A DNA stretch of 63,973 nucleotides, the filler included, from Nemertoderma westbladi (Eukaryota; Animalia; Xenacoelomorpha): NCBI GenBank assembly GCA_032718475.1. It is 3 parts of 3 records of this genome, joined end to end, with 100 filler letters (N's around TTAATTAATTAA, not from the genome) between each part and the next. Parts side by side here need not be neighbours in the genome. Positions count along the whole stretch, not along the records: positions 28,989 to 58,330 come from JAUCBJ010004894.1; 2 more parts are not named here. One strand, given 5' to 3'. How positions within the stretch are numbered: the first letter of the stretch is position 1; every line of letters starts with the position of its first letter. Positions 23,521 to 62,693 of this stretch are shown here, one piece after another. The notes beneath the pieces were generated by a model, which was not told where the DNA came from, made no database searches, and worked only from the letters and a program-made list of their open reading frames with translations. A program made the translations under genes and the position numbers.

Positions 23521-24384
23521 TATGTAAATTATTCGATTTATCAGTTTTTACACAGCTTAGCAGTATACCAATAAGGAACACCTCGTAATTTGTTAGAAAA
23601 TATAACTCACTGTTTATGATTGAAATGTAAGCATGTTTGAAATCATAGCGATAGACTGTTAAGTTAACTAAAACATCCATGCAATGCTGTATTTAAGCCT
23701 TCACATTTGTGTGCGAATCTGTATAATATTATTATGGAATCCTAACGTGACTTACTACACACATTGTACAGCAGCAGCAACCATATTCTGTTAGTTCATA
23801 TATCATAGACCGTTATACTGCAATAGCTTAGTGGAAGACCTTACTGAAGCAACAGTGTGAAACGCAATAACACTAGTATTCTAACATATAATGTGGTGAC
23901 AGCTTATAACAGAATATTATGCCTTAAATAAAGATAAATTAATTTAATAACAGTTTATAATTTGTTAATTAGATACGCCGAAGGCACAATGAAAATGCAT
24001 CAACGAGTGTAAAAGTGTCAGATAGTGGCGCACATTGACCGCAAGTGAAACTAATGATCTTCAGCGTAAATTGACCTCAAGTGAAATAATGTATAGTTTA
24101 TTGTTTTGGTTAGAAAACAATGCCACTGTATACTGCTCCGCTCCTTTCCTTTAATGTTTTTAATTAAATTAAAGTTTTCATAAGTTTTCATACCCACTGT
24201 CCCACTGTTTGCGGTTAATTTGCGCCATTAACTCGACATAAAGGGTCTTTTCACCGAGGCGATTGAATAAAAATTTGTTTATCGAATGGCCACGGCACGG
24301 CCGTCTACAGCGGTTTATTTACATAAACATTAATAAACACTATCTAAATAAAATGTAATAAACAAATAAAATAAATAAAAACGA

Positions 24385-26367: not shown

Positions 26368-28841
26368 GTTGTTACCAACTAATCTCGGAAAAAATAACCA
26401 ACTACATCATGTTTATATCAAGAAGCCACTATTAATTTACAATACAACAAACCCATCCAGATACCCTAGATTTCTAAAAGGGTTTTGTTTGGGGGTATAA
26501 ATTTTGGGGGGAGACACTAATTACAAATTAATAAATAACACGAGCGGCCAAGGCATTACATATGTATTAACGCCAACAGTAATACCGATTTCCCAACTTA
26601 CTCTATGTAATATTACTATTAAATTGTATAATATTAAAAAAATATTAATAAAAAAAAGTAGAACATTTTTTTTCTCAATATTCTCTCGACCCTTTATTAA
26701 CCTCGCTGGCGCTCGGTAAATAAAATGCCTCGAGAATAATGAAAAAAAAGTTCTACTTTTTTTTTCCATGTAATAAATAATTATTTATTCTTAAATTGTT
26801 ACCTTTTCGCTTGAATTTAGACCAAAATCGGGAGAAAATGTTTAACTTTTTTTCCCGGCTAAAAAAGTAAAACATAATATTTTTGGTGGAATTTCTTAAA
26901 TTTTATTACCGTTATACCGGTACCGTACTGTAGTTCTACAGCAGTGTGCAGTATGTACGTTATTTACAACTGCTAGGTACAGTACAAGCCTGGCTGTCTG
27001 GCAGTCTGGTGCGATCGCCTTTACGGTAGAATCGTAGAAACTGTTGAGAATGGGATCAGGATGCTGCTGCCCATAATTTTCAAATAGTGAAAGTAAAAGA
27101 TCTCTGAGTAGGCTGAGTTGAGTGTGCAATCTGAACTTGTAGTGTAACAGTAGGCCTACTGCACTTCCCCTGTAGTTTCTCAGTAGGGTGAGTGAGGGAG
27201 ACTTGACTTTAGGGGAGACTTGATTTTTTTTAATAACTCAAAAACTATTGTAAATTATTTTAACAATACCACACAATAATGTGTAAAGTACATGTTGGCT
27301 ACACCCGCGCAACAATGTTTTATTACCTTTTGGTTATTTTTTGTTTTATTGTCAATAAACGTTTTCTGGGTTCAAAAGTAAATTTTTGCCCTTTACAACG
27401 AATGAAAATTCGCATCCTTATTTCACTGTATGTTAATTGTAATTCAACATGTGTTGACTAATTATTGCACTCTCCTGCCATATATTGTTTTCCAGTTTTG
27501 GTTCAGCCGTTTTGAAATTATATCAATTAATAGAAAAAAATGCCCATGTGGGGAGACAGGACGCTCGAGTGTGAGGGAGACTTGAACCCGCCAATGCTGA
27601 CGTCTACCTAAAGATAGACCCACGTAGAGAACCATTACACCAGGCCACTCCAACTAGTTGATTGGCACTTACACCGACGCAGCTATCAATGGATGGCTAT
27701 GCTTCATGCAGTAGGAGTAGCCCCTCTCTCGATTAAACCAAACCCAGCCAAGCCAACCAACAACTCTTCCTTCCCCTCTTTGCAATGTGGTAGCCCGCCA
27801 ACTTGGTGATTAACAACTTAAACAAGATGCCACTATGTCAGAAAGCGACACACATCAATAGAATTACATGAAAACAATTAAAGTGCTCCTGGATTGAAAA
27901 TTATACAAGATATTCATTAATAAAAAGTACCTTCCCGCGTTAAATTTTATTGCGGTTTTAATTAACTATTATTTATTTATTTATTGTTAGGAGAACCATG
28001 TGAACGACCACCTAAATTTGTACAAAATTTGGGATAATAATTTGACAAATTAATAATCGTATTTTTTGCATGTTTGCTGCTCTACTATAAAATAGACATG
28101 TTGAACATTATTAGGTTATTAGGCCTACACTTCTTACGCATTTCTGAAAGAATTTACAAGAATGTGAGGTGGGGTTCAAGTCTCCCACCCTAGGTGTCAA
28201 GTCTCCCCCCATTGAGGGATACTTGACGCTTTTTCGAAAATACGGATAATTGGTTTAATTAAAAAAGTTTAAGAGTTGAAATTCTCAAACTCTCACATAA
28301 TGATAGCAATCATAAATGTAATCTGAAAAAGTTAAAACGGCATTGAAAAATTCATATATCTGTTCTTTAGAGCGATTATAACTTTTGGGGTTCAAGTCTC
28401 CCTCACTCACCCTACCGGTACCGGTACATTAAATTATTGCTCAATACAGCAATATGTTATTTTCAGTAGGCCTACCGGTCTGGTAGGTTCTGTAGTTGTA
28501 AGGCAGTGATGTGATTGAGAAAGGAAGCTGCGGTACCGTTACCGGTACTGTACGATGCATGCAGTCAGTCTACCTACACTCTGAACTAAAACATACCATA
28601 GGCCTACAGTAGTCTTATTCTTACAACTTTCACTTTCACTCATGTTAGTAAAGGTACCGACCGGTATGCTAACTACTGTATTCACAACACGGCAAACAGG
28701 CATAAATATAATTTCAAACATGCAGATATCGGAGTGTTGAAAAATAAATGTGTTATTATTTCCTAGGACTAAAATAACACAATTTTTAGATAGGTTATCA
28801 TTTCGATTGTGTTATTTTTTCCGGGATTGGTTGGTAACAAC
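26368..28841. mobile_element. Non-autonomous TIR element hosting a nested MITE
   Basis: ~31-bp TIRs GTTGTTACCAACYAATCYCGGAAAAAATAAC with two mismatches; no clear TSD. Confidence 0.6.
27186..28412. mobile_element. TA-flanked non-autonomous DNA transposon
   Basis: Perfect TIR GGGTGAGTGAGGGAGACTTGA, TA on both sides, internal GGGAGACTTGA subterminal repeats. Confidence 0.85.
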
Positions 28842-29648: not shown

Positions 29649-29829
29649 ATGACCTACTATAACAGTCTGTAACAGTCTACTACTGTTATAGTAGGTCATG
29701 GGGTACCCCCCCCCCCCCCCCCCCCCTAAAAAGAGCTAAATTTATTTATTTATTAAGACTGCGCACATTAATATTTTATAATAAGGTTATAATAAATTAT
29801 TCATTAAGAATGTCACTCTTTATGAAGTA

Positions 29830-29922
29830 CCAACCGAATGTCACACTTTATGATGTGCCAACCGAATATACCAACCGAATATACCAACCGAATATACCAA
29901 CCGAATATACCAACCGAATATA
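29830..29922 (-). repeat. 13-bp tandem repeat spanning a DPP exon donor junction
   Basis: (CCAACCGAATATA)x5 plus diverged copies; reads TATATTCG|GTTGG on the minus strand. Confidence 0.85.
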
Positions 29923-30034
29923 CATGCCGTGTAAAAGGACCCATTTGTGTTGATATGAAATAAAGTAATCTTGTCTTTGGAATAAATCGCAATATTTCCG
30001 TAACTTCCCATTGTCCGCGTGTTAAGAATTTACC
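29915..30034 (-). CDS. DPP4/6/10-family (S9B) beta-propeller exon
   Basis: ttacag|GGT acceptor; GKFLTRGQWEVTEIL...LLYFISTQMGPFTRHVYS resembles DPP4 FITKGTWEVIGI...LYYISNE; donor TCG|gttggt. Confidence 0.85.
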
Positions 30035-30765
30035 CTGTAAGAAATAGAGGCTAATTAGAGTCAGATAGAAAAAAAAAACAATTTATTTACCTGAGTGAAA
30101 TAAAGTTGCCATTATTTCGATATGCGGTGGCGTGTCACTTAGAAAATTGGTTAACTGGTCAAAATCACATTCGAGAAAAACGCAGTTAAAATTTAAATGG
30201 TAAATGGATTTTAGATGGACATGACGATTTGAATTACATTTTTCAAATACTTAAAATAACATTTAAGGCAAGAAAAAAGGCAAGTGTTAGCGCATTGGAA
30301 AGGTAAATAAATGTTCTCTATTAACGTTTATGAATAACTAAAAATCGACCAGATGACCAGTTAACCCTTTTTCTAGGTGACGTAGGCCTATTATAAATAA
30401 TTCGTAATAATTTATTAGTAAAAAATAGTAAAAAATGTATAATATCATATTTAATTAAATTCACGTTAAGTCTTCTGCAGTAAGTAAACATATTAACAAT
30501 AAATTAAGTTTGTAATTAATTAACAATATAGGCCTAATTGCGGCTACGCCGTACTGAGACTGAAAGATATTAATTTAATCTTTAAAAATATATAAACCCC
30601 AATTGGGGGAATCGGTATAAGTGTCATATGGAAGTTACTATGAAATATTTATTTAAATTAAATATACAACAGTTATATTAATAAAAAGAAAGATGTTAAG
30701 GAATGAATCAGAACTGATATTATTGTTTATGATGTAATGTAAATGGGTTTGTTCAGTTTTTAAAG

Positions 30766-32541
<1,776 letters not shown>

Positions 32542-32544
32542 CCA

Positions 32545-33820
32545 ATTTATTTATTTAATATCACCTGGCAGCAATACTCGAGCTGAATATTTATTTAATT
32601 AATATCACCTGGCAGCAATACTCGAGCTGAATATTTATTTATTTAATATCACCTGGCAGCAATACTCGAGCTGAATATTTATTTATTTAATATCACCTGG
32701 CAGCAATACTCGAGCTGAATATTTATTTATTTAATATCACCTGGCAGCAATACTCGAGCTGAATATTTATTTATTTAATATCACCTGGCAGCAATACTCG
32801 AGCTGAATATTTATTTATTTAATATCACTTGGCAGCAATACTCGAGCTGAATATTTATTTATTTAATATCACCTGGCAGCAATACTCGAGCTGAATATTT
32901 ATTTATTTAATATCACTTGGCAGCAATACTCGAGCTGAATATTTATTTATTTAATATCACTTGGCAGCAATACTCGAGCTGAATATTTATTTATTTAATA
33001 TCACCTGGCAGCAATACTCGAGCTGAATATTTATTTATTTAATATCACCTGGCAGCAATACTCGAGCTGAATATTTATTTATTTAATATCACCTGGCAGC
33101 AATACTCGAGCTGAATATTTATTTATTTAATATCACTTGGCAGCAATACTCGAGCTGAATATTTATTTATTTAATATCACCTGGCAGCAATACTCGAGCT
33201 GAATATTTATTTATTTAATATCACCTGGCAGCAATACTCGAGCTGAATATTTATTTATTTAATATCACCTGGCAGCAATACTCGAGCTGAATATTTATTT
33301 ATTTAATATCACCTGGCAGCAATACTCGAGCTGAATATTTATTTATTTAATATCACCTGGCAGCAATACTCGAGCTGAATATTTATTTATTTAATATCAC
33401 CTGGCAGCAATACTCGAGCTGAATATTTATTTATTTAATATCACCTGGCAGCAATACTCGAGCTGAATATTTATTTATTTAATATCACCTGGCAGCAATA
33501 CTCGAGCTGAATATTTATTTATTTAATATCACCTGGCAGCAATACTCGAGCTGAATATTTATTTATTTAATATCACCTGGCAGCAATACTCGAGCTGAAT
33601 ATTTATTTATTTAATATCACTTGGCAGCAATACTCGAGCTGAATATTTATTTAATTAATATCACCTGGCAGCAATACTCGAGCTGAATATTTATTTATTT
33701 AATATCACTTGGCAGCAATACTCGAGCTGAATATTTATTTATTTAATATCACCTGGCAGCAATACTCGAGCTGAATATTTATTTATTTAATATCACTTGG
33801 CAGCAATACTCGAGCTGAAT
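32545..33820 (+). repeat. 44-bp homogeneous tandem array (~29 copies); resumes at 40445-40505 after the LTR insertion
   Basis: Unit AATATTTATTTATTTAATATCACCTGGCAGCAATACTCGAGCTG. Confidence 0.97.
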
Positions 33821-34098
33821 TGTTAGCTTATCCAATTCCGCTAACACAAACCCATAGAGTGAGCCATAAAGCAATATTGGGAGCACGAGGTTGATTACCA
33901 ATCAACCTCGTGTCAGCCCAGTAAACGGGGACAATAGGCCCCAAAGGAGACACACACAATAAGGGTCAGGGGCCAAACCCCTAACCAAGAGAGAACAGAT
34001 GGAGTGAACGGGAACACTCCACGGGGTGCCAACAAGGGTATCAACCAATCAGAGGGGGGCAAGGCATCGATTAGGTAGTAATTAGGCCAACCGTGCAA

Positions 34099-34131
34099 TA
34101 TAACCAGTAACCCAATATCAGTAATTCAGTT
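34099..34131 (+). promoter_or_regulatory. LTR core promoter (TATAA + TCAGTT initiator)
   Basis: TATAA at 34099 and TCAGTT at 34126, with upstream CCAAT motifs; similar TATA-Inr spacing in the BEL-B LTRs. Confidence 0.55.
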
Positions 34132-34422
34132 ATCTCAGTGCAGTAGTGCTAGCATAGGTTAATTAGTTTAGATAGGGGAGCACGGGACTTTAGTTACTGT
34201 ATCCCGCCTTCCATATACTATACAATATATCTATATCTTATACCTTTATTATTATACACCGAACTTCAGAACTCATTTCACTTTCATTCACTCTTTATAC
34301 ACGGCGGGGACGCGTGAACTAAATACCGGATAAATCGGGATCCCTCCTGGATCCCGTCACAGTAACTAAAACCAACCGCTGCCCTAGCTAGCCAAACCAT
34401 CAGCCACCAATTACCAAAGGAG

Positions 34423-37400
34423 ATGAGTCAGTCAAGAAAGACGACACCGCCGCGGACCCCGGACGGCGATCTAACGATCCGCGAGGCCGCGACGAGACGG
34501 TATGCACCCACAACGCCGAACCCATCGAGAACGGGCCATCCGGCGATCCGAGACGAGGGGGGCCGTCTACAGCGAGAGGACGAGACGGGAAGGAAGAAAG
34601 ACGAGTCGACGCGGATCGAGGGTCGACGTACCGATGTCGCCGGCCAGCCACAGGCCGAGGGCGACGGACGACCCACCGGAACGGCGACGGTGGGGCCGCC
34701 GGTACGACGTCGGGCCCGGAGAGACGGAGGAGAGGTCGGCGACGAGGACGTCGGGGTTTCTGATCGACTTCGACGGGCCTACCTCGCGACCCGGAAGCAA
34801 CTGAGAGAGGCCAGAGGAAGGGCGAAGATAGACAAGGTGAGATTAACAAGAGGACTAGGTGAGTCGAGCAGATACTTTGATTACCTAATGCGTTTTGGGC
34901 AGAGAGAACTAGCCGAGGAGAGGGCGAGGGGAGTTGCCAACGAACTGATTGAAGTATGGGAGTGTAGGGGTATGGAACCTAGCGTAGTGTACGTAGGGCC
35001 ATACTTAGTCGATGCCCGGGGAGTAAAATTAGTGGGTTGGAAGAGACCTGAGGAGGGCGAATCCGAGGTTAAACCCGAGGATTCGGTCTCGTCGGTAGGA
35101 GGAAGTTCCGGGAGGTGGGGGAAAGTTGGTGGGACGGAGGGGCGACGGGAGTCCGTCGCAACCGATAAGTCTGCTACATCCTCCGCAAAAGAAAGAAGGG
35201 TGCGGGAGATAGGTCTGACGTGTGAATTAGAAACGGTGGCGAATGAGCAGAATGAGTTAGAGTGGCAATTGAGAGAGAAAACCGCATTGTTGGAGGGAGA
35301 AGAAGAGTGGGCGAGGGAGTGTAGAGAGGAAGCCGAGGGGTGTAGAGAGGGAGCCGAGGAGTGTAGAGAGGCAGCCGAGGAGTGTAGAGAGCGGGAGATG
35401 GGAGTAGAGAGCGAGTCGGCGAGGCGGTTGGAGATGACTGCGAGATGGTCAGAGTTGGAAGAACAGAATATGCGAGAGAGAGAGATAGAGAGTAAGCGCG
35501 TGCAGGATGATTTGCGTGCCCAGCTAGAGAGGCTTACACAATATCAAGCCAAACTGAATCAGCGCCGACTAGAACTGGCGCGGTTGGAACTATCAGAGAG
35601 TGAGACCCCACTTACAGACACCGGGCGAGAGAACCAGAACTGGTGTAGCCGTACGGGCGGGGGGGGGTAGTAGTAGTACGTTAGAAATAGTTAATATTAA
35701 TAGTACCGTAGTAGATAACCCTAATCCCTTTATTACAGGAAATAATATTTTACCGGGTAGTAGTAATTTAAATTTAAATAGAAATATTCTAAACAATAAT
35801 TTCAATTCAAACCCGCAAAATAATTCGAATAATAATTTAAGTTTAGAGAATAGTAGTGATCTAAGTAATTTAAATAATTTAAATAATAATCCCGTTTCAA
35901 ACTCTAATAATTTAATTGATTTAACAAATAATATTGGGAATGGTGCTATTAATATGAGCGTGTCGGACGTACATAACCCGGCAGACGGCGACCTGGCAGG
36001 CCACGTAGTTAGTAGGCAGGAAGTGGCAGGGTTGAGCCAACCCGACGGCGGCCTGGTAGGCCACGTAGTTGGTAGGCAGGAGGTAGCGGGGTTGAGCCAA
36101 CCCGAGGTGGGCCTGGTAGGCCACGCAGTAGTAGAGAGAGAGGCGGGGGTGAATAGACCCGGCCGTAGTAGAGACAGTGCGTCGACTAGAGAGGGGTGTA
36201 GAGACGAAGTAAGAGATAGTGAAGTTAGATGTGGCGAGTGGGGGGGGGGGCTATGGGCGCCCCACCACATGAGATTAGCGGCGAGAGAGGGGGGGCAGAG
36301 AATGCCCCACAAGAGGGGTGTAGAAGTGTAGTAAGAGGTAGTGAAGTTAGAAGTGGCGGGTGGGGGGGGGGCTTCGGACACCCCACCGCGAGAAGTTAGT
36401 AGAGAGAGAGGGGGGGCAGAGAGTGTCCCACAGCCGTCAGCGGATAATGCGCGGGCCGAATCAGGTAAACCGCAACACCCGGCGACGGAGAGTAATAGGG
36501 GGATTGCGAGTATCCCCAGCGGCGTGCGATCGAGCAGAGAGAGGCAGGTTGACGTCGCGAGAGGGCAGGCGAAGCGTCGAGCCCGATCAGAAGAGGGAAG
36601 AAGAACAGTGGAGTTTAATCGGGAGGTCGACGAGAGACCTCACGAGCCGGAATACTACACAGAAAAGAGAAGAAGAGAAGATAGTAGAAGAAGTGTCGCC
36701 ACGAACGATAGCAGTGCGAGGACGGATAACGGACCGTCGACAGTAGAGATGGAGTCAGGGGGCCAGTGGGGTCGAACTTCGGGAGATTGCCGTAGCCCCG
36801 GAGAAACGCACCGCACCCCAAGAGAGGGGTACAGGAGGCACCAATACAAAGTCGAGAACAGGAGAGGGGATCGAAGAGAAGCTTCCCGACGGGATATAGC
36901 TGCCGATCGAGAGTGCAGTAGTCGCGGGGAGATTCGAGATTCGCAAAGAATAAACTTCGGTTCGGAAGGGCACATGCAGACTGCAGGACATACTGTAGGC
37001 CTTACTGCACATACTATTATAGGCCATGCTGGGAGAGATAGAGTAGGCGATGGGGTAGCGCGAACGACGGGATTAAACCCGGAAGTCGCGGAGTACATAC
37101 CGGTAGGTAGGCGAGAGGTAGGTAGGCCTATATCGGTACAGCAGCATGACTATAATACACAGGGACATAACATGTATCCAGGGGAGGGGGGAGTTATTGG
37201 AGATAGACGTATGGGCCCCAATGTATTAACATAACCCCAGTACCAAACATACCGGCCGGGGGGGGACAGGGTGACATTCCCCCATCACAATATCGACAAT
37301 ATACCCCAATAGGAGCGAGAACATCGAACCCCTTGGACGAGAACAGGTCGTGCGGACAGTCAATACCACACGCGGCCGTACAGGGGACTGCTAGTCCACA

Positions 37401-38124
37401 GTTAGCTGGTAGCAGGGCCACACCGTGGCAGGGACAGAAAGAAAATAACACCAAAAATAAACACAATCCCAATATACCCAGTAGGCCGAGTCTAGACAAC
37501 CAAAACATTAAATCGGTACATATAAACCTAAGCGCGATACGTGAAGGACTATACAGGAAACGCTATAATCCAGGATTCCAATGTCAATTACATCGGGACG
37601 GAACCCATAAGACCAGGAGTTGTAAGTACTGGCAAGCGTTGCCCAAACGAGATCGTGTAGCCTACACAGACGCAAACGGACTATGTCATCGATGTGTGGT
37701 AAAAGGACACAGATCCGGAGAGTGTTGGAAAGGGAGAGGATGTGAAAGGACTAAACCAGGGGCAGAGAAGCCCATTAGCAAACATAAGGGAGTCGGGAAA
37801 GTAGGAGGAGGCGTGTTGCATACACACGCAGGACGGACACAGTGCGAGGGGGCATTGCACGGGCAGACACCGCGTATACCGAGGAACGAGCGGGGGTCGT
37901 CGAGGGCTCTAATGCCAGCGCACATACGAAGGGGGAGGCCAGCAAAGGTGGCACCGAAGAGAGTGTGGCGAAGAGTTAGAGGACGTATAGGAGGGCAGCA
38001 GGAGAGTGCCTACTGGAAGAAGGGGCACCTGAGAGTTTTTAGTCGTCCAAAGTTTTGGACTGAGGGGGGTGGGAATGAGGGCGAGACGCCCTTCCCACGC
38101 ACAAAATATAAAATAATTATTTAA
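34423..38124 (+). pseudogene. Interrupted gag-like coding region of BEL-A (ORFs 34423-35670, 35600-36331, 36341-37234, 37333-38124)
   Basis: Coiled-coil N-terminus homologous to BEL-B (YVGPYL, PEDSVSSV, ESVAT.KSATSS), Asn-rich segment, C-terminal Zn knuckles; several frame changes fall near G homopolymers. Confidence 0.75.
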
Positions 38125-38179
38125 TTAAAATAAGAAAATAATTAAATAATAGAGTAGGTAGAAGTTAGGTAGTAAGAGA

Positions 38180-39000
38180 GTAGTACCGATAGTTAGTTAG
38201 AGAGTTAGAGGGTATGTAAGTACCGATAGTTAGTTAGAGAGTTAGAGGGTACGTAGTACCGATAGTTAGTTAGAGAGTTAGAGGGTACGTAAGTACCGCT
38301 AGTTAGTTAGAGTTAGAGGGTACGTAAGTACCGCTAGTTAGTTAGAGAGTTAGAGGGTACGTAAGTACCGCTAGTTAGTTAGAGTTAGAGGGTACGTAAG
38401 TACCGCTAGTTAGTTAGAGTTAGAGGGTACGTAAGTACCGCTAGTTAGTTAGAGTTAGAGGGTACGTAAGTACCGCTAGTTAGTTAGAGAGTGGTACGTA
38501 GTACCGCTAGTTAGTTAGAGAGTTAGAGGGTACGTAAGTACCGCTAGTTAGTTAGAGAGTTAGACGGTACATAAGTACCGCTAGTTAGTTAGAGTTAGAG
38601 GGTACGTAAGTACCGTTAGAGAGTAAGAGTTAGAGGGTACGCAGTACCGTTAGAGAGTAGGAGTTAAGGGGTACGTAGTACCGTTAGAGAGTAAGAGTTA
38701 GAGGGTGGTACGTAGTACCGTTAAAGAGTAAGAGTTAGAGGGTACGCAGTACCGTTAGAGAGTAAGAGTTAGAGGGTACGCAGTACCGTTAGAGAGTAAG
38801 AGTTAGAGGGTGGTACGCAGTACCGTTAGAGAGTAAGAGTTAGAGGGTGGTACGTAGTACCGTTAGAGAAGTTAGTAAGAGGGTACGTAGTACCGTTAGT
38901 TAGTGGAGTTAGAGTAGTGAGAGGGTACGTAGTACCGTTAGTTAGGAGAGTTAGGAAGTTAGTGAGAGAGTACGTAGTACCGTTAGTAGAGAGTTAGCAG
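38180..39000 (+). repeat. ~33-37-bp tandem array inside the BEL-A 3' region
   Basis: Unit ~GTACCGCTAGTTAGTTAGAGAGTTAGAGGGTACGTAA, drifting along the array. Confidence 0.9.
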
Positions 39001-40624
39001 AGTAGAGTTAGTAGTAGAATGGTTGTGGGCACCGTAAGCGCCACATAGAAAGTAGTAGCAGTAGAGGGTTGTGGGCACCGTAAGCGCCACGTAGTTAGAG
39101 TTAGTAGGGAATGCGCTGAACTTAGTGGGGCACGGGCGTGATGACGTGTTTGATGTAAGAGCAGGGTATGTTAATTAGGGTGGGTGCCGGGCACAAGAGG
39201 TGCCGGGCACAAAAAGAGTTAGTAGTAGAGTTAGTTGAGTTAGTAGTAGAGTTAGTTGAGTTATTAGTTAGATAGTTAGAGTTAGTAAGCAGTAGGTAGA
39301 TAGTATGATAGCACAGGGGTAGCATTAGAGATTAAAGCCTTAGGGAGTGACAAGAGAGTGGAGAGGTGATAGTGCGGAGTGCGGGGAGAGTGGTGTAAGT
39401 ACTATAGTCATACAACCTTTCTCAATTAGCTACTGGGACTGGGGGGCTAAGTGACTATGGCACTAGGGACAAGACGCCAGACGATTTCGCATTTCCTGAG
39501 TGCGACGGCACGGAGGGGGGGTGAGATTCGTCAGAAGGGATGAGGTAGTCAAGGAGGGATGGAGTAATAGTGCGGAGTGCGAAGAGAGCGTGGGCGCAAT
39601 TCAAGTGTGGGGGAGGAGAAGTGAGAGGAAGAGTGTGGGACGAGGAGGTCCGGGAGTATGCGAGAGTTGGAGTAGAGTGGTGAGAGTGTTGGGGAAACAA
39701 AAATTGTGTGAGAGAAGCGCACGATCGGCCCGACACGAAACGCCAGAGGGTAGCAATATCATACCCATAGGGAGCGGCCTGGAAAGCCGGCTCCGAAAGA
39801 AAATAACCCACCCCACACCCGATACTAGATCGGGATCCAGCGGAATTGTAGCGCACTTTAGTTGGATGCTATCTTCTCACCGGGAAGATAGCATGGGGGG
39901 GAGTGTTAGCTTATCCAATTCCGCTAACACAAACCCATAGAGTGAGCCATAAAGCAATATTGGGAGCACAAGGTTGATTACCAATCAACCTCGTGTCAGC
40001 CCAGTAAACGGGGACAATAGGCCCCAAAGGAGACACACACAATAAGGGTCAGGGGCCAAACCCCTAACCCAGAGAGAACAGATGGAGTGAACGGGAACAC
40101 TCCACGGGGTGCCAACAAGGGTATCAACCAATCAGAGGGGGGCAAGGCATCGATTAGGTAGTAATTAGGCCAACCGTGCAATATAACCAGTAACCCAATA
40201 TCAGTAATTCAGTTATCTCAGTGCAGTAGTGCTAGCATAGGTTAATTAGTTTAGATAGGGGAGCACGGGACTTTAGTTACCGTATCCCGCCTTCCATATA
40301 CTATACAATATATCTATATCTTATACCTTTATTATTATACACCGAACTTCAGAACTCATTTCACTTTCATTCACTCTTTATACACGGCGGGGACGCGTGA
40401 ACTAAATACCGGATAAATCGGGATCCCTCCTGGATCCCGTCACATGAATATTTATTTAATTAATATCACCTGGCAGCAATACTCGAGCTGAATATTTATT
40501 TATTTGTACTTCCCTCCTGTTTCACTCTAGCATACTTGAGGCCATTAGGTCCGCTGTTAGAGATAGAATATTTGCAACTTAAGACTGCCCGTTCAATAGA
40601 AGTGGACTAGGTGAGACTGTGAGT

Positions 40625-40752
40625 GTCAGTGGCTAGTGGCTGAACTGGTTAGCGCTACTGATGAGGCCGGATAGGCTGAAACGTACGTATAGCGCTGGTT
40701 CAACCCCCGGTGACGATTCTTTCTTTTCTTTCCACTTCTGAACAAAACCATT
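40625..40752 (+). mobile_element. SINE-like Pol III unit with a hammerhead ribozyme between the A and B boxes
   Basis: A box TGGCTGAACTGG 40637-40648, B box GGTTCAACCCC 40697-40707, T-rich tract with TTTT at 40724-40727; second copy at 62599-62693 (-). Confidence 0.7.
40651..40696 (+). ncRNA. Type I hammerhead ribozyme
   Basis: Stem I AGCGCTA/TAGCGCT, core CTGATGA, stem II GGCC-ggata-GGCT, GAAA, minimal palindromic stem III ACGTACGT, GUA triplet (predicted cut after 40689). Confidence 0.9.
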
Positions 40753-40866
40753 TACATTACATCATTAATTACAGTTGCAACAGCTCATCTCCAATTTATT
40801 ATTATTTATAGCTTTTCATTTACCTGATCACCACATGTTTAGGTACATTAATGAGGGTCTACCAAC

Positions 40867-41019
40867 CTTCTTTCTCTCGGACTCGTTAACATTTAACCAG
40901 TAAATGTGTTTATAACTCCCGATTTTTCCCTGAGGTAGAGATTTTATTATAAAAGCCTCAGCTGCCTCGAATAATGACTTTCTCAACGACAATGGGAATT
41001 CAGAAGATTCATCTATTAC
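40867..41019 (-). CDS. DPP4/6/10-family exon
   Basis: ctcag|GTA acceptor, AAG|gttggt donor, 153 nt, phase 0/0; ...SLPQGKIGSYKHIYWLNV. Confidence 0.75.
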
Positions 41020-41107
41020 CTGAGTATAAAAAGTTAAAACAATTTAGTAAAAAATTGCATTTAATTAATAATTTAACAAGGAAAAGGAAATATCGTATGT
41101 CACTTAC

Positions 41108-41338
41108 GTTGACACACGTTGTATTCTGGCCATTGTTATTAACAACCGCGCAGTAGGTAACGATTCTGTGATTTTGGGAACGATTTAACCATGTTACAGC
41201 CAAAGTAGTAACATCGACCCAATCCAGAGATGTGACGTAATACGCGGTGCCAATCTCAACCGGCGGCGATATAATGACGTCATCTAAGGTCCATAAGTCG
41301 GTGACGTGCACTGTAACTTCTGGATTTGTATCACCTGC
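41108..41338 (-). CDS. DPP4/6/10-family exon
   Basis: ttacag|GCA acceptor, AAC|gtaagt donor, 231 nt; AGDTNPEVTV...YYVTSLDWV...LAVTWLNRSQN. Confidence 0.92.
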
Positions 41339-41564
41339 CTGTAAAATAACAATAGTAATGTAACTGGATATTATTACCTCATATTATTATGGAACATATA
41401 TATGGAACAGCTTTAACGATTGGGTTCATAAGGAGGATTCAATTTATTTCACAAATTCAGGAAATATGCCTAGAATGTAATATTTTTGATCATACGGTAT
41501 TTTTTTCTATCCAACACGTCGTCGGCAAATACCACTAGGATGCGTCAACGGCCGGCTGGCCATC

Positions 41565-46495: not shown

Positions 46496-49400
46496 TTTAC
46501 TGTAACGTAACATTGACGACGCGATCATTTAGCGAGCAGGTGCTGTGTAACTAACACAAAGAACACAAGATGACAAGAAATAAGTGAACTGATGCATCCT
46601 GTCTGATATTGTAATTCCTAAGTTTATTACATCACTGCCGAACGAGACTGGCTTTATCGATGATTGACATTAGTCTTTGATCTGAGCGGGAAATGGGCGG
46701 ATATTAATATTCCGGTGAATTTGGTGAGTTGTTTGTTTTATGGAATAAAGTATAGCCAACGGGACACATCGACCCTAGGAGCTAAGCGATCCAAATCGTT
46801 GAGCAACCCGGTGTTGGGTGGCGAATCGCCTACATTACATATATTCGATTGTTGCGCTTCGGTATACACCATGTCCTGGAATATAGTCTCGTTATTCAGG
46901 CACCTGCCCCCCCCCCCCAAAAAAAATTTTTTTTCTAGAAATCTTAATGAGATTAAATGAAATTTGAAACAGAGATAGTTTCACCTCCCTCCTCCTTGCA
47001 GGGTGAGCCAGAATTTTTATTTTTGCTTTCAATCTTTAGCTACAAGTATTTGAAAAAGGTGTCTCCGGTGATATTTCACAGGTCACAGTGCAATCATTCT
47101 TCAACCTTATAGTCTAGAGATTTGATGGTACCAATAGAAATCTGCCAAGGGAAGGATTCCTTAAATATGTAATAACTATTTACGTACTTGTGTGTAAAGT
47201 AGCACTTCACAGTGTGATGATCCGAGTGGCTTTGTTTGTAAGCGGAACCCATTCCCTGCACTACCCAGCGGAAAATGGGGAAAGTGGCTTTCTACCAATT
47301 ATAGTTGGCCGGGTGACATTGGCGATATAATGTCACCTAATAACCAACGGCAATACACATTGCCAGCCACAAGCAGAGATAAGAGGCTACAAGCCATCTC
47401 AGGGGCACAAAGGGAACAAGGAGTGCCAAACGAAGGGAGAATAGGTTAGCCAATGATGGGGCAGAACACCATCTGATTGGGGTGCATTCATTAGCCAGGC
47501 CACGTAACAGTAGGAATATTCCATGTGTGTTAGTAATATAACCGTTGCATTTATTACCTATAGTTCAGTTGGTTTGTGTAGAGCTGTGGAAACAAGACGG
47601 TTTTAACCGTCGTCGTCATTAACCGTGCTATTATATTCTGATTGTGCTATTATTGTATTCTGACATTACGAACAACTGCCACTAAAACTTATTCAACCAG
47701 CCTTCAGCCTTTTAAACTCAGATACCAACAGCCTTTCAGCAGCCTACGGACGCGGCGAAGAGTATAACCCAAAAGGAGAGACGGTTCGGTCGTCGAAGAG
47801 GAGAGGGGCCGAGTACGAGGAGAAGAGGGACGCGAGTCAGCACAAGATAAGAGTGGCGAGAGAAGTACCGGAGTGGCTGGCCAACCAGTGGCTACAGGCG
47901 GCGAGGGGCCCACCGGAACGGCAATGGTGGGACCGCTGGTACGACGCCAGACAAGGAGAGAAGGTCAAATTCAGGAGGAAGACGTTGGGACGAGTGATCG
48001 TCTATGACAGGGGTACAATGTAACGAGGAATTTACTCAAGAATGCTAACTGGAGGAAAGCTCCAGCCCAAGTTGTACTGGAGACCCGGTGAGTGCAATAA
48101 ACATTTCCACTACCTAATCTGATTTGGGCAGGGGGAACTAGCGAGTGAGAGGGCGAGGGGGGTCGCCACAGAACTGTTCGAATTGTGGCGATCCGAGATA
48201 ATGCCACCTGGTGTAGTGTACATAGGGCCTTATCTAGGGGATGCACAGGGAATTAAGTTAGTGGGATGGGTGGATCCGCACGAAGCCGAACCCGAGTTTA
48301 ACCCCAAAGATTCGGTGTCGTCGGTTAGTAGAAATGCTAGCAAGCATGGCAAAATTAATAGAACGAATAGGCGATGGGAGTCCGTCGCAACCAAAAAGTC
48401 TGCTACATCCTCTGTGAAAGCAAGAAGGGTGTTAGAGATAGATCTGGCGTGTCAGCTATACATGGTCGCATTAGACCAAAAGGAATTAGAGAGGCAGCTG
48501 GATGAGGGGACTGCGTTATTAGAAAGGGGAAGGGAGCTAGTGAGAGAGTGTAAAGAGAGGGCCGAAAAGGTGGCGAGAGACTATAGAGAACGTGAGGAGA
48601 GGGAAAAGAGTGAACGTAGAGAATGGAAAGAGAAAGAAATGAGTGAGCGTGAAGAGCGGTAGGCGAGAGAGGAGAATGAGCGCAGATAGAGGGAGGCAAG
48701 AGAGGCGAATGAGCGCAAAGAGCGAGAAGCGAGGAAAGCTGAGAGGATTGAGAGAGAAGTGAACGAGCACAGAGAGCGGGAGGCGAGGGAGGCAGAGTTA
48801 GCTGATCAGAGTGTTAGAGAGGACAGAGAGAGAGAGAGAGAGAGGGTGGGCAAAAGAATGCGGGATGATATCCATACCTGGTTGAGGGGGTTAATGCAGT
48901 ATCAGGCGAAGCAAAATGGGTTATCAGAGAACGAAGCTGGTTCGGGAAGTATTTATGAGGAACCAGGGGTGATGGAAACCTTTGTTAATACCCCACTTAC
49001 AGGTACCGGACGACAGACCCAGAACTGGTGTGACTGGACGGAAGGGGGGGGGGGGGGGGGGGGTAACGACAATACGTTTAATGAGAACGCTTATATTAAT
49101 AATACCATAGTAGACAACCCTAATAATAATTAAACATTTCTTACAGGAATAATAATGTTTTAATAAATAATGGTAATGTAAATGTTGGTGCGCCGGACAA
49201 TCAAAATAATTTAAATAATAATGCTAGTAGTGATATGGTAAATAACAATACAATAAATAATCCCGGTGAAATTAATCAAAATAATCAAAATAATAATGTA
49301 ATAAGTAATCATGGCGAGGCTAGTGGTGGTATAATTAAAATTGCGCAGAGAGAAATGCAGGCGAATGAACCCAGGGAGAGCAGAAGCAACGTGTCTACTG

Positions 49401-52249
49401 GAGGGGAGCGTGGTCAAAGGGGTGAAAGGGGCGAAGTGAGAAGTGACGGTGGGGGTGCTACCGTAAGAATACCTACAGTATTCTTCGTAGTCCTAGCAAG
49501 CCGGAAGAATACCTACAGTTCCGGAGGAAGTACAGCAATGAGATTTTGACGAAAAATCTCACACAGGCGGAGTGCCTTAAATATCTACAAGTCTATACAG
49601 GGGGGCCAGCCTATGACATCGTAAGGCAATACCAAGTAATTGAAGGAGGATTTACAACCGCGTGGAGAGCCTTGGACAGGGAATTTGGCCATCCTGCGAA
49701 GATTATCTGACAAACCTTAAGGGGAATAACATCAGGAGGACTCGAAGATAACCCTGTTAGTATCAAGACCTTCGCTAACAAAGTGGAATAGGTGCTGATA
49801 GTCTTGAAGACTCTAGATACACCATACGAACTTAATGTATCGAATAACATCACAACCATAGTGCCGGCACTACCGATTTGGTTAAGGAACAAATGGAGAT
49901 AGAGCGCTCTCCACTCGAGTGAAGAAGGGTGCAGAGCCAGGGTTGGAGGAGATGTCGAACTTCCTTATCTACGAGGCGGAGTTGATAACGGATCCAGTCT
50001 ATAGTGAGGACAGTCTAGGCAAAGTACCGAAAACGGAATACAGCCGACCTAAACCCGAACATAGTGTGGCGGATGCACTTCCGAAAGTGAGGCAGTCGCT
50101 ACCGCATGCAGCCACACAGGGGACTACAAGTCCACAGAGCCCTGGGAGTGAAGCCACATCGTGGCAGGGACAGAGACAAAATAGCAACAGCAGTAGATAT
50201 AAACCTAACACCCCCAGTAGGCCGAGTCCAAACAACCAAAACATCAAACCGCTAGATATGAATCTAAATGCGATACGTGAAGCGCTATATAAGGAATGCT
50301 ACAATCCCGATTACAAATGCCAATTGCACAGAAGCGGGACACATAAGACCATAAACTGTAAGCATTGGCAGGCGTTACTTAAACAAGACCGAATAGCCTA
50401 CACTGGAAAGAATGGACTATGTCACTGATGCGCGGTAGGAGGGCACAGAAAGGAAGAATGTCAAGAACCACCGATTAAGTATGCCGAGACTGATGGAACT
50501 GGAGGCCAGATGATGGCAACGAGTACCACGGGAATAAGGAGGAAGAGAACAGTACTACTCGGAGTAGTACCAGTGAGGATAATTGGTGAAAACGGACTAT
50601 CGGTTACAACATTAATGTTAGTCGATAGTGGAGCAGCATTAACGCTAACGGAGAGTTGGGTGGCCGAGAAGATAGGATTAAAGACCAGGTCAAGTAAGAT
50701 GGCGGTGACCACGATATCAAGCAAAGACGAGGTCATGAAGATGAGGATGGGATGGTGTGAAATTGGAGCAATAACACCAGGGTGTAACTTTGGGGCTACC
50801 ATCGAACCCATCCAAATAATAGAGTCAATGAACATCAACGCCAGGCAACCTACAAAGATCGAGATCGAGCAATACAAGTGTCTCTCAAAGTCGGCATGGA
50901 CTGTCCAATGGCCCATGGGAGACTGCAAACCATCTTCGGCGATGACAAAGAGCGAGACCCGGTGGCCATTCTCACGCCATTCGGGTGGACGCTCAGTGGC
51001 CCAATAAAGACGAGGATCCTGTTTAGCGTATCCGAATCCTCTGGATGCATGCTGTCCGGTACCGTTGAGGACACAGAGCAGAAGCCAAAGACGGGTGATG
51101 GGGAGGTGCCATATGGGAAGCGGCCTGAGCAGAAGTCAAGGACAGGCGATGGGGAGTACCCATATGAGAAGCCGCCCGGGGAAGGATATCAGGAGTCGGG
51201 GGCGGGTATGGATCTGGAACCACGCATAATGAAAATGGCCAGATGTCATGTCAGTGGGCCAGATGTGGATATGAATCCTACTGATGAAAAGACAACCAAG
51301 GGTAGCATTCAACTACAAAGGGAGGAATTTTATGAAGAGGCGAGTCTCCAGAATGAAGATTTCTGACAGCAGGGGGCATTCTACTACTGAATGCTACCCT
51401 GGCGAGGACGGAAAGATTAAAGCCGTGGAAGTGAGGATCGCAGGAAAGATAGGGGCCAAAGATAGGAAGACCTACAGGAGGGCGGTAGGGAAGTGTTGCC
51501 TATTGGAGGGAGCGCCCTAATTAGTTGAGTTGTCCAATATACTGGACTGATGGGGGTGGGAATGAGGGCGATACGCCCTTCCCACACACAAAATATAAAT
51601 AAAAATAATAAAATAAAAAATAAAATTGAGTAAGCAGTAGTACCAAGGTACAGTTTAGGTAGACATTATGTATGTCTGATGGGTACGGATGTACCAACGT
51701 ACATAATATTTAGGTGTAGGTAGTTATAATTACGTACGTCGGATGGGTATGAATGTACCAACGTACCTAGTTTACATACGCACCAAACATTCCGGGTCAA
51801 TGGGACCAATATCAGTAGAAGGGTACATGGTACCATAGTGAGGATTGGAAGGGTATACATTACGTATGTCTGATGGGCACAATGTACCACTGTACGTAAT
51901 AAATACCAAACATGCCTGGTCAATGGGACCAATAATAATACGTAATACGTACTACAGTGGGCACTGAGGGCCCCATGTGAGGAGTTTAAGGGGGTATGTA
52001 GGCGTAGTAGAATAGACCGTGTAGGCCGAATGAACTAGAGTACTGTAGCGCATAGCCCGTAGTGCAGAGTTAGACCATTGTTACAGAGCCAGAAAGTTGT
52101 CTGGTAGGAAGCTAGTACAAGAATAAGACAATTGTAGCTAGTCTTCTCTGTAGACAAGTAGTGATGAATTACTTACATTGTAGTTGAATAGTAGGTAGGG
52201 TAATAGCACGTTAGTTGAGGTTGGGTAGTGAACACAGCACTGAAAAATC

Positions 52250-52590
52250 ACATACTACTACTACTACTACTAGGTCGAGCGAACTCGGACAGTGGAAATG
52301 AAATCCTTCCAGGCTTCCGATTCTCCATAGTTGTAGCAATTTCGTTTCTCCCAAGTTCAGTATCCCTTTCAAGTTGATCTATATATGTTATGGCCGGTCG
52401 TCCACGGGTACGCTTTCCTTGTGTTGGTTGCCAGAAAAGTAGATCTGGTATGACCTCGTCTTTACTTCGCCAGCAGTGCCCACTGAATCGTAATCTGCGT
52501 TCACGGAGGGTGGTTGATACAGGCGGTATTGTACCATAAAGGTCGGTGTTTGTCATGTATTGTCTCCAGCTGATGTTTGAAATTGGCACA
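52250..52590 (-). mobile_element. RTE-clade 3' fragment with (TAG)n tail, nested in BEL-B
   Basis: RRLRFSGHCWR, GRPAITYIDQL; nearly identical 3' end to 45035-45235. Confidence 0.85.
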
Positions 52591-52712
52591 TAGAGGGGAA
52601 TATTTGTGCGAAACATTGGCAGAACGCAGATAGGAGGTAGGCCAACACTGATTTAGACTAATTAAGACCATACTTAGTCATCTCTTGCCCTACTGAGCCT
52701 TTCTAAGGCACC

Positions 52713-55135
52713 TACTATACTACTACTATGATCGGCATGCTGCATTGCAGCTGCATTTTTAAGAATGCTGTGCCGGCTTGTCAACAAAATTGCACCGCCA
52801 CAACTCCCTATCACCCATGACATTTGCTAGATCATCCGCATCTTCAAGGCCAGTGTCCTTTAAGATGCGTCTCAAGAAAGTCATGGGCTGTCCACCATGC
52901 TTATTCACTCCATGAGGCTGCCAAAGTACAAGATTATGCACTGGCTGGTCCTCACGGCGAAAGCAATGTCCTGCAAAGCGGAGGCGATTTTGTTCTAGTG
53001 TCAAGCTTGGGGGAACCAATGAGACGCCTCCAATGTTATATAGTGTCTGGTTGGAGATGTGTGCATTGTACTTGACACAATGAACCCGGCGTAGCATTCT
53101 TGTGAATGTGCCATCCAGAGATTTGGTGTCCTCAGCAGCTAGAGCCCAGCATGGACTCCCGTAGAGGAGTACTGGAACTACTGCTGCTCTAAATAATCGG
53201 ACCTTAAGTTTCCGATTAATTCTCGGTGACTTCCAAATCCTGGAAAGCCTATTCAAGGCTGCCCATGCCTTTCCCTTACGTATTCGAAGGTCCTCACCTG
53301 ACTTCCGGATCCATGATCCCAGGTAACAGAAGTCGTCCACATGCTCAAGCATACCATCCTTTGAGCTTATGCTCATCCGATCAAAGACTTGCTGAGGACT
53401 TTCAAAGTTAACTGTCAGAATTTTGGTCTTTCTGGAGTTAATAAAAAGACCAACACTAGAAGCAGCATGTTCTAATGAGCTGAGGAGCCGCTGGGCTCCC
53501 TCTAATGATTCTGAGAGTACTCCTAAGTCATCAGCAAAGTCTAGATCAGTTAGGTACTTGGCAGGATTTCCTCGACTTCTGGAGCCAGTAGGTGGAGTTA
53601 TCATCACCCCATCATCATTATGATGATCTAAGGACATGCGTAGAACATAGTCAACCACAATAATGAACAAGAATGGTGCAAGTGTGTCTCCTTGGAGGAC
53701 GCCCCATAACACTTCAAATGGTTCTGTGTCACCGTCAACAGTAGACACAAATGTTGTCGAACCATCGTATACTGATCTGATTGCTGCAATAATTTCATCA
53801 GGAATCCCATATAATGAAAGTATGCTGAACATACGTGAGCGAGAGACTGAATCAAAGGCCTTGAAGAAGTCAACAAAGATAACAGCCAGATGCCTGTCTT
53901 TCTTTTTTGATAACTCTTCAATTATCCTTCTAAGTGCCAAAATGGGCTCCATGGTCCCACGACCTTTACGGAACCCATTCTGATTTCCACGGAGCAGTCT
54001 CTCAATGGGATCCCTGATGCGATTTAATAGAATCCTATTGTATAGCTTTGCAGCAATCGAGATCAATGAGATTCCCCGAAAAGAACCATAGAGTGTTAGG
54101 TTGCCCTTCTTGGGAACTGGCACCAACTTATTTGTTTTCATTTCTTGTGGGACTCTTGTAGTTCGGTACATGTAACCCTTTAAACACTCAGGTATTTTAA
54201 AGACCTCAGGGGGAACACCATCTACTCCACTGGCACGATTGGTCTTAATGCTCTTTGCAGCAGCCTTCACTTCTGCAAAGGAGATATCGCCAATGGGAAT
54301 ATCTGGGAGTACAGACTCAGACACTTTTACTTCTATAAAGTTATCAGGCAATACCCTGTCATTATTGAGGAGCTTTTCAAAGTGGGCTTCCCAACCATTG
54401 AGGCGATCGGCTGGTGATTCAGCCTTAACCTTGGTGGTTGGTTGGCTTTTCCGCCCAGTAAGCAGATTGATCGATTTCCATGCCTGGGATGATTGCCTGC
54501 TGTCGTCAGCATCATTGATAGCATCAACCTGTTGGTTTATTAGCTCCTGTAGATTAGCAGAGTACTGCCTGTTCAGGGACCTAGATGCAGCCTTAACTGC
54601 ATTCTTGGCCGCTGTAGTCTGTTTGAGTCGGGACTCTTTCTGCGCCTTATGAAGATCATTTCGGCACTTCTGAATTTTGTTGTCAGTCCAGGGGGCCCTT
54701 TTCCTGTTTCGAGGGTATACAGGAACTGTTTCTGCAGCTGCTAACTTAACTGCTTCTGTAAAGGCAGTATAGCCCTCACAGTGATCTGCCGCCTCAGAGG
54801 CAAGAGCCTCATACCTGTTGCTCAGCTGTAGTGTGAAGCTGGATCTCACACTTGGCTGTTGCAACAGAGAGGACCAGTCATGCCGCGGCCTAGCAGATTT
54901 CGTTGTTCTGCTAGCACGCAGACTAAGTCTTACCTTGGCCACAATAAGGCGGTGATCACTGGAGAAGGGTCGAAGTGTAAATGCATTACAGTCTTGTATA
55001 GAGCTCCTGTATTTCCTACGAAACAGAATATGGTCTATCTGGGACTTGTGACCACTGGGTCCACTATGAGTCCATAGCTTTCCAGTTCGCTTCTTGAACT
55101 GGGTTCCAGCCGAAAACAATCCATTTCCATTTCTA
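52713..55135 (-). mobile_element. 5'-truncated RTE-clade LINE (ORF 52759-55119, partial APE + RT), nested in BEL-B
   Basis: QIDHIL, SDHRL, QNGFR, FVDFFKAFDSV, GVLQGDTLAPFLF, LDFADDL, YLGSWI, RLRFAGHC. Confidence 0.93.
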
Positions 55136-55195
55136 AGGCACCACCAGTCTGGTGAAAGAGGAGAATCGTAATGGCGGAGAAGCTAGAGGAAAAGT

Positions 55196-55790
55196 TTGTC
55201 GTATTCTGTGGAGATGGGCAGATATATGGTCCTGGATGACATGGGCACAGTAGAGGATGATGGTGGGACAAGAAAGGGGTCAGGAGGGTCGAGTATAACT
55301 ATATTGCTGCATTTAGTGGCGCTGAACGGAAATATTTTTCTGTTTGACCTAGCGAACTATGGTAAGAAGAGCGGGCCAAAGTTGAACCGCCTAACGGATG
55401 CAATGCAGAAGCTAGTAAGGTCAAAGACTACGATCGAAATTGGATCGGCGATATGCGACGATGCAGAGAGGATTATTGGACCGGGCACCCCGAATCTTCT
55501 GGACATGCAGGTAGTCTATATGGCTATTACAAAACCGGATGGATTATGATTGGTGGATAACACGGGACAATAGGGAGCCGTGGCAATGGGTCAGTTGATG
55601 GAATCCCTAGCCACAAGCCGATGGAGTGGAACAAGTTCCAAGAGGAATACGGGGTGGGACTTACGAATTCACTCAAGTGGGTGGCGAGATGGGGGAGAGA
55701 CGAGTTATATCACTTCCGAAAGGGGGCGATAAAGACACGTCGTATAGACGAATATATAATATACGTACTATAGTCAGATATAACCTTTTC
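55196..55790 (+). pseudogene. DEDDy (RNase D/WRN/EXD-like) 3'-5' exonuclease relic; extra ORF of BEL-B
   Basis: Motif order YMVLD..., ILLHLVALNGNIFLFDL, MQKLVRSKTTIEIGSAICDD, NLLDMQ parallels LLQLA...FLFDL / LKxLLxxxxIxKVGxxIxxD / NxxDLQ; stops and frameshifts downstream. Confidence 0.65.
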
Positions 55791-60822: not shown

Positions 60823-61040
60823 TTTAGTCTCATATATACTATTTTATTTTGTTGGCGTAATGTCTGATTTGCGTAACTTCCTGTTTGCTACTTCTTGTTG
60901 CTGTTATCACATTTTTTAACATTCGGTTGTTATCGCAATCGCAACCGATCTTTCTCTAAAAAATAAAAGTCAGTCAGTTTTAAAAACTGGTACCGTACTG
61001 TTGTAAGTCAATAAGTTGATTCTGTATTCTGGTATTGGCA

Positions 61041-62598: not shown

Positions 62599-62693
62599 AT
62601 GATTTTGTTCAGAAATGGGAAAAAATTAGGAAGCACATCATCGGGGGTTGAACCAGCGCTATACGTACGTTTCACGTCGAGCCAGTCAGCGAC
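62599..62693 (-). mobile_element. Internally deleted copy of the hammerhead SINE-like unit
   Basis: Minus strand TGAAACGTACGTATAGCGCTGGTTCAACCCCCG is identical to 40677-40709 and the downstream TTCTGAACAAAA is shared; CTGATGA and stem II are missing. Confidence 0.75.

Follow-up and report, generated by a model that had tools for sequence, protein, structure and literature searches.

A high-copy repeat of about 344 nt in Nemertoderma westbladi, a likely non-LTR retrozyme with a type I hammerhead inside a remodelled tRNA-Asn gene

Metazoan non-LTR retrozymes, as described in excerpts of PMC7229834 and bioRxiv 10.64898/2026.07.22.740005, are head-to-tail repeats with a unit of 150-450 bp and a canonical type I hammerhead; they are present in many copies together with solo derivatives, have a GC content below 50%, occur in genomes that also harbour Penelope-like elements, and form circles described as highly self-paired. 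The text of PMC7229834 examined makes no mention of a Pol III promoter or of a tRNA origin for retrozymes. Schistosoma's SINE-like repeats Sm-alpha and Sj-alpha, according to excerpts of PMC6765202, PMC2770079, PMC2576457 and PMC8490949, are about 335 bp long and carry tRNA-derived A and B boxes and a type I hammerhead; Sm-alpha is present in more than 10,000 copies, its multimers are cut to units, and it derives from tRNA-Gln, its head still being called tRNA-Gln by tRNAscan. The terminal repeats of Penelope-like elements (excerpts of PMC4209133, PMC11167929 and PMC8557442) have a type I fold with a palindromic stem III, a genomic 3' end that lies roughly 100 nt past the cut, and a microsatellite at a junction, all of which recur in the element described below; their helix II of 7-8 bp, their helix I of 4-5 bp and their adjoining RT-endonuclease ORF were not seen at its unit. 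This element bears on the question whether animal hammerheads share a single ancient ancestor or have arisen again and again, and we found no natural hammerhead with a nameable non-catalytic ancestor in the literature searched.

The window analysed here is a stretch of 63,973 nt from Nemertoderma westbladi (GCA_032718475.1), filler included, made of three parts of three records joined end to end. At 40625-40715 on the plus strand it holds a body with an intact hammerhead core, flanks on both sides that match eukaryote-type tRNA-Asn, and A and B boxes complementary to each other; the repeat to which this body belongs has a high copy number, a unit of about 344 nt and head-to-tail joints. We consider it probable that the locus is a dispersed copy of a tandem repeat family in which a type I hammerhead lies inside a remodelled tRNA-Asn gene, and that the family is a non-LTR retrozyme. 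The anatomy of the unit is that of a non-LTR retrozyme and not that of a 128-nt SINE. What is new is that ribozyme, promoter and tRNA ancestor are the same bases; the retrozyme type and the parts combined in Sm-alpha were already known, and the first-pass annotation had rightly cautioned that the same parts are found in Schistosoma. The predicted cut falls between the boxes, so the promoter does not lie wholly before the ribozyme, as it does in the serial layout ascribed to Sm-alpha. Compared with Sm-alpha, the layout of which we take from its depiction in a review as a promoter and then a ribozyme (excerpt of PMC6765202), the Nemertoderma element has its ribozyme between the boxes and apparently built of the tRNA's own bases, its parent is tRNA-Asn, and no tRNA is called in it at normal thresholds. 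We found no report of a natural hammerhead nested in a tRNA body in the literature searched, which was mostly text outside subscription papers, figures and bioRxiv supplements.

The hammerhead, the A box and the B box were each found where the annotation had placed them, together with every other motif it had named. The 5' strand of stem I (40651-40657, +), which corresponds to the 3' strand of the former D stem plus 2 nt, forms 7 bp with the 3' strand at 40690-40696, which is not tRNA-like and is the reverse complement of 40651-40657. Between the two strands lie the catalytic core CUGAUGA (40658-40664), stem II with loop 2 (40665-40677; 4 bp, 40665-40668 with 40674-40677, the outer pair being G.U in the window copy), the catalytic GAAA (40678-40681), and a stem III of 2 bp with a palindromic tetraloop (40681-40689; palindrome 40681-40688), followed by the predicted cleavage site after 40689. 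As had been proposed, this cut separates the A box (40637-40648) from the B box (40697-40707). A type I hammerhead descriptor matched the window once, at this site, and matched in none of 300 Markov-resampled windows. Pairs of A and B boxes were expected at 0.02 per resampled window and two were present in the real one (40637-40707 on the plus strand and 27642 on the minus strand), and both boxes were found around the core in 0 of 20,000 local resamples. When the core was enforced, the best fold (-27.8 kcal/mol, against -30.3 kcal/mol unconstrained) contained the suggested extension of stem I by pairing of the A box with the B box. The outer pairing said to close the hairpin (40625-/40714) is where the annotation had put it. 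The 128-nt stretch alone preferred a different fold, which did not exceed shuffled sequences in stability (z -0.15). A covariance-model search, which had been put forward as a check, returned a weak match to Rfam Hammerhead_3 (17.4 bits, E 0.82) but none at the gathering threshold.

Two further points about the ribozyme had to be revised. It had been set beside the minimal type I hammerheads associated with Penelope elements and retrozymes; under the helix-length definitions given in an excerpt of PMC4209133 it is canonical, with a helix I of 7 bp and a helix II of 4 bp. Those minimal forms had been noted to cleave as dimers. A stem III of 2 bp capped by a tetraloop marks the invertebrate type, and because invertebrate ribozymes of this kind are reported to cleave well as monomers (excerpt of PMC7229834), monomer cleavage is probably possible for the predicted ribozyme; the palindrome, for which a dimer pairing of -9.8 kcal/mol was computed, would also allow dimers.

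Data on the unit, its copies and their variants come from contigs of public sequencing runs aligned to 40450-41000, with only contigs at least 80% alike being used (100-1985 placed per run). In runs X1 and X2, variation in CUGAUGA stays below 1.3% at the places listed: for the invariant core positions listed it does not exceed 0.5% of depth, and for 40662, the free position, it is 0.6-1.2%. In run X4, which has few contigs, core variation reaches 9%. Position 40669 is T in 98-99.6% of depth and 40671 is T in 10-55%. In the majority of other copies, loop 2 has the letters of an anticodon loop (GUU or GAU). The frequent variants are compatible with the ribozyme: C at 40677 (56-82%) turns the outer stem II pair into G-C, and with G at 40685 (3-14%) the palindrome is retained via G.U. 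Conservation of the boxes among copies, on which the earlier reading had depended, was borne out for the variants listed: the common A-box variant, G at the purine position 40644 (5-58%), keeps the pair with the B box as G.U, the B box of a second copy in the window is identical, and no B-box variant is found among the 40 of 63 rows listed, with 12 places of at least 5% variation in X1 being given without a position and a second variant table covering 40651-40685, a range outside which both boxes lie.

The first-pass annotation had placed the hammerhead where the anticodon and variable region of a tRNA would be. The body does align in this way, to tRNA-Asn(GUU), and the parent tRNA can be named, a point absent from that account. 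Compared with the tRNA-Asn locus L073, the first three bases agree (3/3), the former D arm with the A box (40637-40655; tRNA positions 8-25) is identical at 16 of 19 positions, and in the segment that holds the B box, or former T loop, and an acceptor-type 3' end with discriminator G (40697-40715), the T loop agrees at 10 of 11 positions and the 3' end at 7 of 8. The flanks of the body resemble the Rfam tRNA consensus and, in a comparison with 17 tRNAs of E. coli, are the sole place in the window where D arm and T loop match jointly. Forty-one loci (18 viral and 23 genome) matched a pattern made of three motifs of the element, in the letters of other copies; ARAGORN called a tRNA at the match in 34 of these, 29 being Asn(GTT), 4 Ile(GAT) and 1 a duplicated Asn called Leu, and called none in 7. 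These motifs were chosen with tRNA-Asn in mind and the Asn tRNAs are thus selected by the pattern, so the parts outside it were scored separately, against 60 different tRNAs (18 of Asn type and otherwise Ile tRNAs selected by the pattern, E. coli tRNAs and giant-virus neighbours, a set other than the host's own tRNAs); the best 9 of the 60 were all Asn-type. Most of the Asn signal comes from the 3' part (23, the other tRNA types reaching no more than 11).

The anticodon arm of tRNA-Asn maps onto stem II and the catalytic GAAA, which stands in the same register as tRNA-Asn positions 41-44. In this register the tRNA pair G30-C40 and the following GAAA at 41-44 equal the hammerhead pair G10.1-C11.1 and G12-A15; GAAA occupies positions 41-44 in 17 of the 18 Asn tRNAs, in all 4 of the Ile(GAT) type and in 0 of the other 38. 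With the commonest letters, stem II and loop 2 agree with tRNA 30-40 at 10 of 11 positions, allowing two 1-nt insertions. Taken alone, stem II resembles the Asn anticodon arm only modestly: against random stem-loops the p value was 0.012 for the GUU type, 0.08 for the GAU type and 0.67 for the letters of the window copy, for which a MAFFT alignment took another register. The CUGAUGA core and the anticodon loop are alike at 5 of 7 positions, a likeness that suggests a tandem duplication of the anticodon loop, one copy of which would have become the core and the other loop 2.

Of the cloverleaf, 2 of 4 D-stem pairs and 3 of 5 T-stem pairs remain, and all four differences between the boxes and L073 put a Watson-Crick pair of the A-box:B-box helix in place of a mismatch or wobble. 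Because the box differences favour this helix while the D and T stems have lost pairs, the cloverleaf appears to have been traded for the long stem I of the hammerhead. Hammerheads engineered into tRNAs have the ribozyme in the anticodon region and keep the cloverleaf; in the Nemertoderma element the cloverleaf is dismantled. No tRNA was found at the site by ARAGORN at default settings or by the Rfam tRNA model at E 10. A functional tRNA gene was considered and rejected, as a cloverleaf with D, anticodon and T stems is not present and the default ARAGORN run makes no call. Also rejected was a tRNA-Ile that ARAGORN calls at the site only at thresholds of 92% or less (1 of 500 shuffles gave a call at 90%), in a contrived fold with the CUGAUGA core as anticodon. 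Between the unit and the flanks of the tRNA-Asn loci we saw no similarity beyond short AT-rich matches. The loci L073-L075, L056, L058, L063, L065, L069 and L072 are eukaryote-type tRNA-Asn genes that lie on short contigs in records of bacterial genomes and probably stem from host contamination, and L073-L075 form a tandem tRNA-Asn array.

How did a hammerhead come to lie within a tRNA gene? Tentatively, we lean toward a de novo origin. The anticodon arm of a tRNA-Asn gene would have become stem II and supplied both the G10.1-C11.1 pair and the catalytic GAAA; CUGAUGA would have been added in front of it, possibly through a short tandem duplication of the anticodon loop; and stem III, the cut site and the second stem I strand, the latter perhaps from a short inverted duplication, would have taken the place of the variable region. 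The D and T stems would have been given up, while the two boxes would have come to pair with one another as a scaffold. Such a gene would have turned into a self-promoting, self-cutting retrozyme with a promoter that is whole only in circles or multimers, and a short Pol III transcript could act as a partner in trans via the palindromic stem III. If so, the likely ancestor is among the most conserved genes known, and one can set out, step by step, the mutations that lead from tRNA to ribozyme; the element also offers a retrozyme origin other than a Penelope terminal repeat, and presents a case in which the same bases must serve a DNA-level promoter and an RNA-level fold.

We rank below this, and regard as unlikely, the import of a ready-made hammerhead as a module from another retrozyme or Penelope repeat into the middle of a tRNA-Asn head, with the same retrozyme cycle and with the likeness of stem II due to chance. 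The range of p values for stem II alone would be in keeping with such a chance likeness, GAAA and G10.1-C11.1 are forced by any hammerhead, and hammerheads are common in animal repeats (excerpts of PMC7229834 and PMC4209133). However, the flanks by themselves name a tRNA type that has G30-C40 followed by GAAA, a combination seen in 0 of 38 unselected tRNAs, and stem I uses the tRNA's own D-stem strand, both of which speak against import.

The size of the repeat differs from what had been expected. Summed contig depth over most of 40450-40810 was 1e4-1e5 in runs X1-X3, against 24-37 on the adjoining exon, and 1e3 against 94 in X4, that is, 3-4 and 1-2 orders of magnitude above the exon, respectively; such depth is not equal to copy number, for which the rough range is hundreds to about 10,000. 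Depth peaked over the ribozyme, dipped at 40716-40753, where the window copy differs from the others, and reached at least 175 nt upstream and 85 nt downstream of the body. A head-to-tail joint from 40793 to 40450, with a period of 344, was present in 6, 1 and 3 contigs of X1, X2 and X3 and in none of X4. The proposed check of copy number and arrangement thus confirmed a very high copy number and head-to-tail joints, but with a unit longer than the 100-130 nt that had been suggested. Relative to the family as a whole, the tandem joints have low depth (45-237), so the majority of copies may be solo. In two runs, 14 and 15 contigs depart at 40800 into unlike flanks (agreement about 0.5). One 371-nt contig of run X6 starts and ends with 40686-40715, giving a closed loop of 341 nt; as this run is labelled as another organism and only guessed to be RNA, and the single contig has a depth of 5.5, we use it for unit length only. 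The GC content of the 344-nt unit, 41.9%, lies below 50%, as in metazoan non-LTR retrozymes.

The main body of the unit in the window lies at 40445-40800 (+); counted from the cut, the 3' end shared by copies lies about 105-111 nt further on, near 40793-40800. The 5' start of the same copy is found at 32538-33820 (+), where a 14-nt repeat of the unit's 3' end is followed by 29 copies of a 44-bp sub-repeat of the unit. Nested between the two is a later insertion, an LTR element (33821-40444, +) with 541-bp LTRs that are 99.4% alike, TG...CA ends and a 5-bp target duplication. At the 5' junction stands an (ATCT)43 microsatellite (32370-32541), either a target site or a slippage product. The window copy is bounded by the same 14 nt at both ends, which are element sequence, and is circularly permuted relative to the predicted cut. 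No large target-site duplication, of the kind that non-LTR retrozymes may have, was seen at its ends, the 5' side being the microsatellite. A second copy, 5'-truncated, at 62536-62674 (-) is identical over 40677-40709 (33 nt including the B box) and alike at 111 of 141 positions overall (78 of 108 outside the identical stretch), and has the same 3' end region. A rearranged fragment of the unit's 3' part lies at 30726-30778, with 31 nt on the minus strand and 19 nt inverted. Patterns specific to the element matched 0 loci in the metagenome, genome and viral contigs searched. The type 2 Pol III boxes derived from a tRNA are shared with tRNA-derived SINEs. Such SINEs begin with the tRNA head and have an A- or LINE-derived tail as their end; unlike them, the unit is permuted and tandem and extends well upstream of the tRNA head, by the 175 nt or more given above.

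In the retrozyme cycle that we favour, the A and B boxes would recruit Pol III, and multimers would come from transcripts that pass the T tract or from read-through from neighbouring promoters. One cut per unit would divide the long transcripts, and the products would be closed into circles and returned to the genome by a reverse transcriptase of the Penelope type. Since the cut separates the A box from the B box, a linear monomer running from cut to cut could not found a copy with a working promoter, whereas a circle or multimer could; only circular or multimeric templates would give both boxes in order, which fits the permuted window copy. Reverse transcription would have a fixed starting point, some 105-111 nt behind the cut, and would yield permuted copies with a short terminal repeat, or 5'-truncated ones. 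For comparison, the reverse transcriptase of a Penelope element of the anole begins within its RNA, at 85-92 nt past the hammerhead cut, as computed from an excerpt of PMC11167929. A candidate Penelope-like RT/endonuclease remnant is present in the window at 8024-10070, with a weak Pfam RVT_1 match. Its motifs suggest that it belongs to Penelope.

Two results weigh against this cycle. Behind the body lies a pyrimidine/T tract (40718-40733, +), in a position like that of the terminator behind a tRNA gene; the TTTT noted earlier is right for the window copy (T4), but other copies carry T6. With a T6 lying about 10 nt past the tRNA body, Pol III would be expected to terminate after about 105 nt, with the unit not yet copied, so unit-length RNA would need read-through or another promoter. 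Moreover, the 344-nt unit folded as a circle is 60% paired and, for this one diverged copy, does not exceed 100 shuffles in stability (z -0.1), whereas the circles of metazoan non-LTR retrozymes are described, in the excerpts cited above, as highly self-paired.

Rather improbable, in our view, is a satellite that arose at the DNA level out of a tandem tRNA-Asn gene and spreads by recombination, the ribozyme only processing or destroying transcripts and the spreading involving no RNA intermediate. In its favour, the unit has kept a T tract and a trailer like those of a tRNA gene, tRNA-Asn genes do occur in tandem arrays (L073-L075), and both the head-to-tail joints and the X6 loop are as compatible with DNA arrays as with circles. 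Reverse transcription is nevertheless the better fit for solo copies that share their 3' end, vary in 5' truncation and have a short terminal repeat. We give scant credence to the unit being the terminal repeat (pseudo-LTR) of an autonomous Penelope-like element, with the solo copies as its truncated insertions. Animal retrozymes are related to Penelope terminal repeats (excerpt of bioRxiv 10.64898/2026.07.22.740005), the fixed 3' end lies about 100 nt behind the cut, and a microsatellite marks the junction (compare the excerpt of PMC8557442); yet the ribozyme is canonical and not of the minimal type, no Penelope ORF adjoins either of the two window copies examined, units join directly head to tail, and the unit has no similarity to the one Penelope-like element in the window. 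Finally, a self-cleaving SINE of 100-130 nt, transcribed by Pol III from 40625 to the T tract and itself mobile, is highly improbable and as a mobile unit largely refuted, as the extent of the depth on both sides, the period of 344, a second copy that runs to the equivalent of 40800 and the lack of any A tail or target duplication seen around 40625-40752 speak against it, although boxes and T6 would give a Pol III transcript of such a size, possibly surviving as a short transcript, and depth is greatest over the ribozyme.

A generic pattern of a hammerhead plus a B box matched 30 loci, 26 of them without stems and 4 belonging to one unrelated family, and thus revealed no second type I family of nested layout among these matches. 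Four contigs of one metagenome (L006:1-125, L011:1-124, L015:1-127 and L026:1-127) begin with an identical segment of about 125 nt and continue into four different flanks. The segment carries a type III-like hammerhead (Rfam Hammerhead_3, 27.6 bits, E 0.0057), with a stem I like a tRNA D arm and a T-loop-like hairpin behind it; ARAGORN made no call in it down to 80%, and no clear parent was found among the 60 tRNAs. Possibly, it is an independent hammerhead in a tRNA-like frame.

The copy lies antisense in an intron of a dipeptidyl peptidase IV-family gene, as had been reported: exons of this host gene flank the insertion (29816-41383, -), and Pfam DPPIV_N matches on the minus strand at both sides, with model positions 150-225 at 41012-41383 and 272-313 at 29816-30082. 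Searches with the DPP exon returned nothing or fragments only. In the exon at 40831-41019 (-), the DPP-like frame meets a stop shortly before the apparent donor site, perhaps because the true splice site differs or the assembly has an error. The nested LTR element is young, with a gag-like region and internal tandem arrays, and no pol ORF was seen in it; a related, diverged LTR element around 47237-56864 has its own repeats of about 540 bp and an aspartyl protease. The second pair of A and B boxes, at 27579-27642 (-), is accompanied by lone B-box matches at 28173 (+), 28389 (+) and 46301 (+); downstream letters are common to three of these sites, and together the four are probably a tRNA-derived SINE family. 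At 8024-10260 (+) the broken Penelope-like RT and endonuclease is followed by a decayed hammerhead-like motif near 10217-10250. Single-exon genes of the chaperonin family, for Snapin, for SID-1 and for a thiolase lie at 10744-12480, 12597-13055, 21031-23547 and 61020-62240, respectively, near a DPP gene with large, repeat-filled introns, and homologues of SID1 come from several animal phyla, the best having 47% identity.
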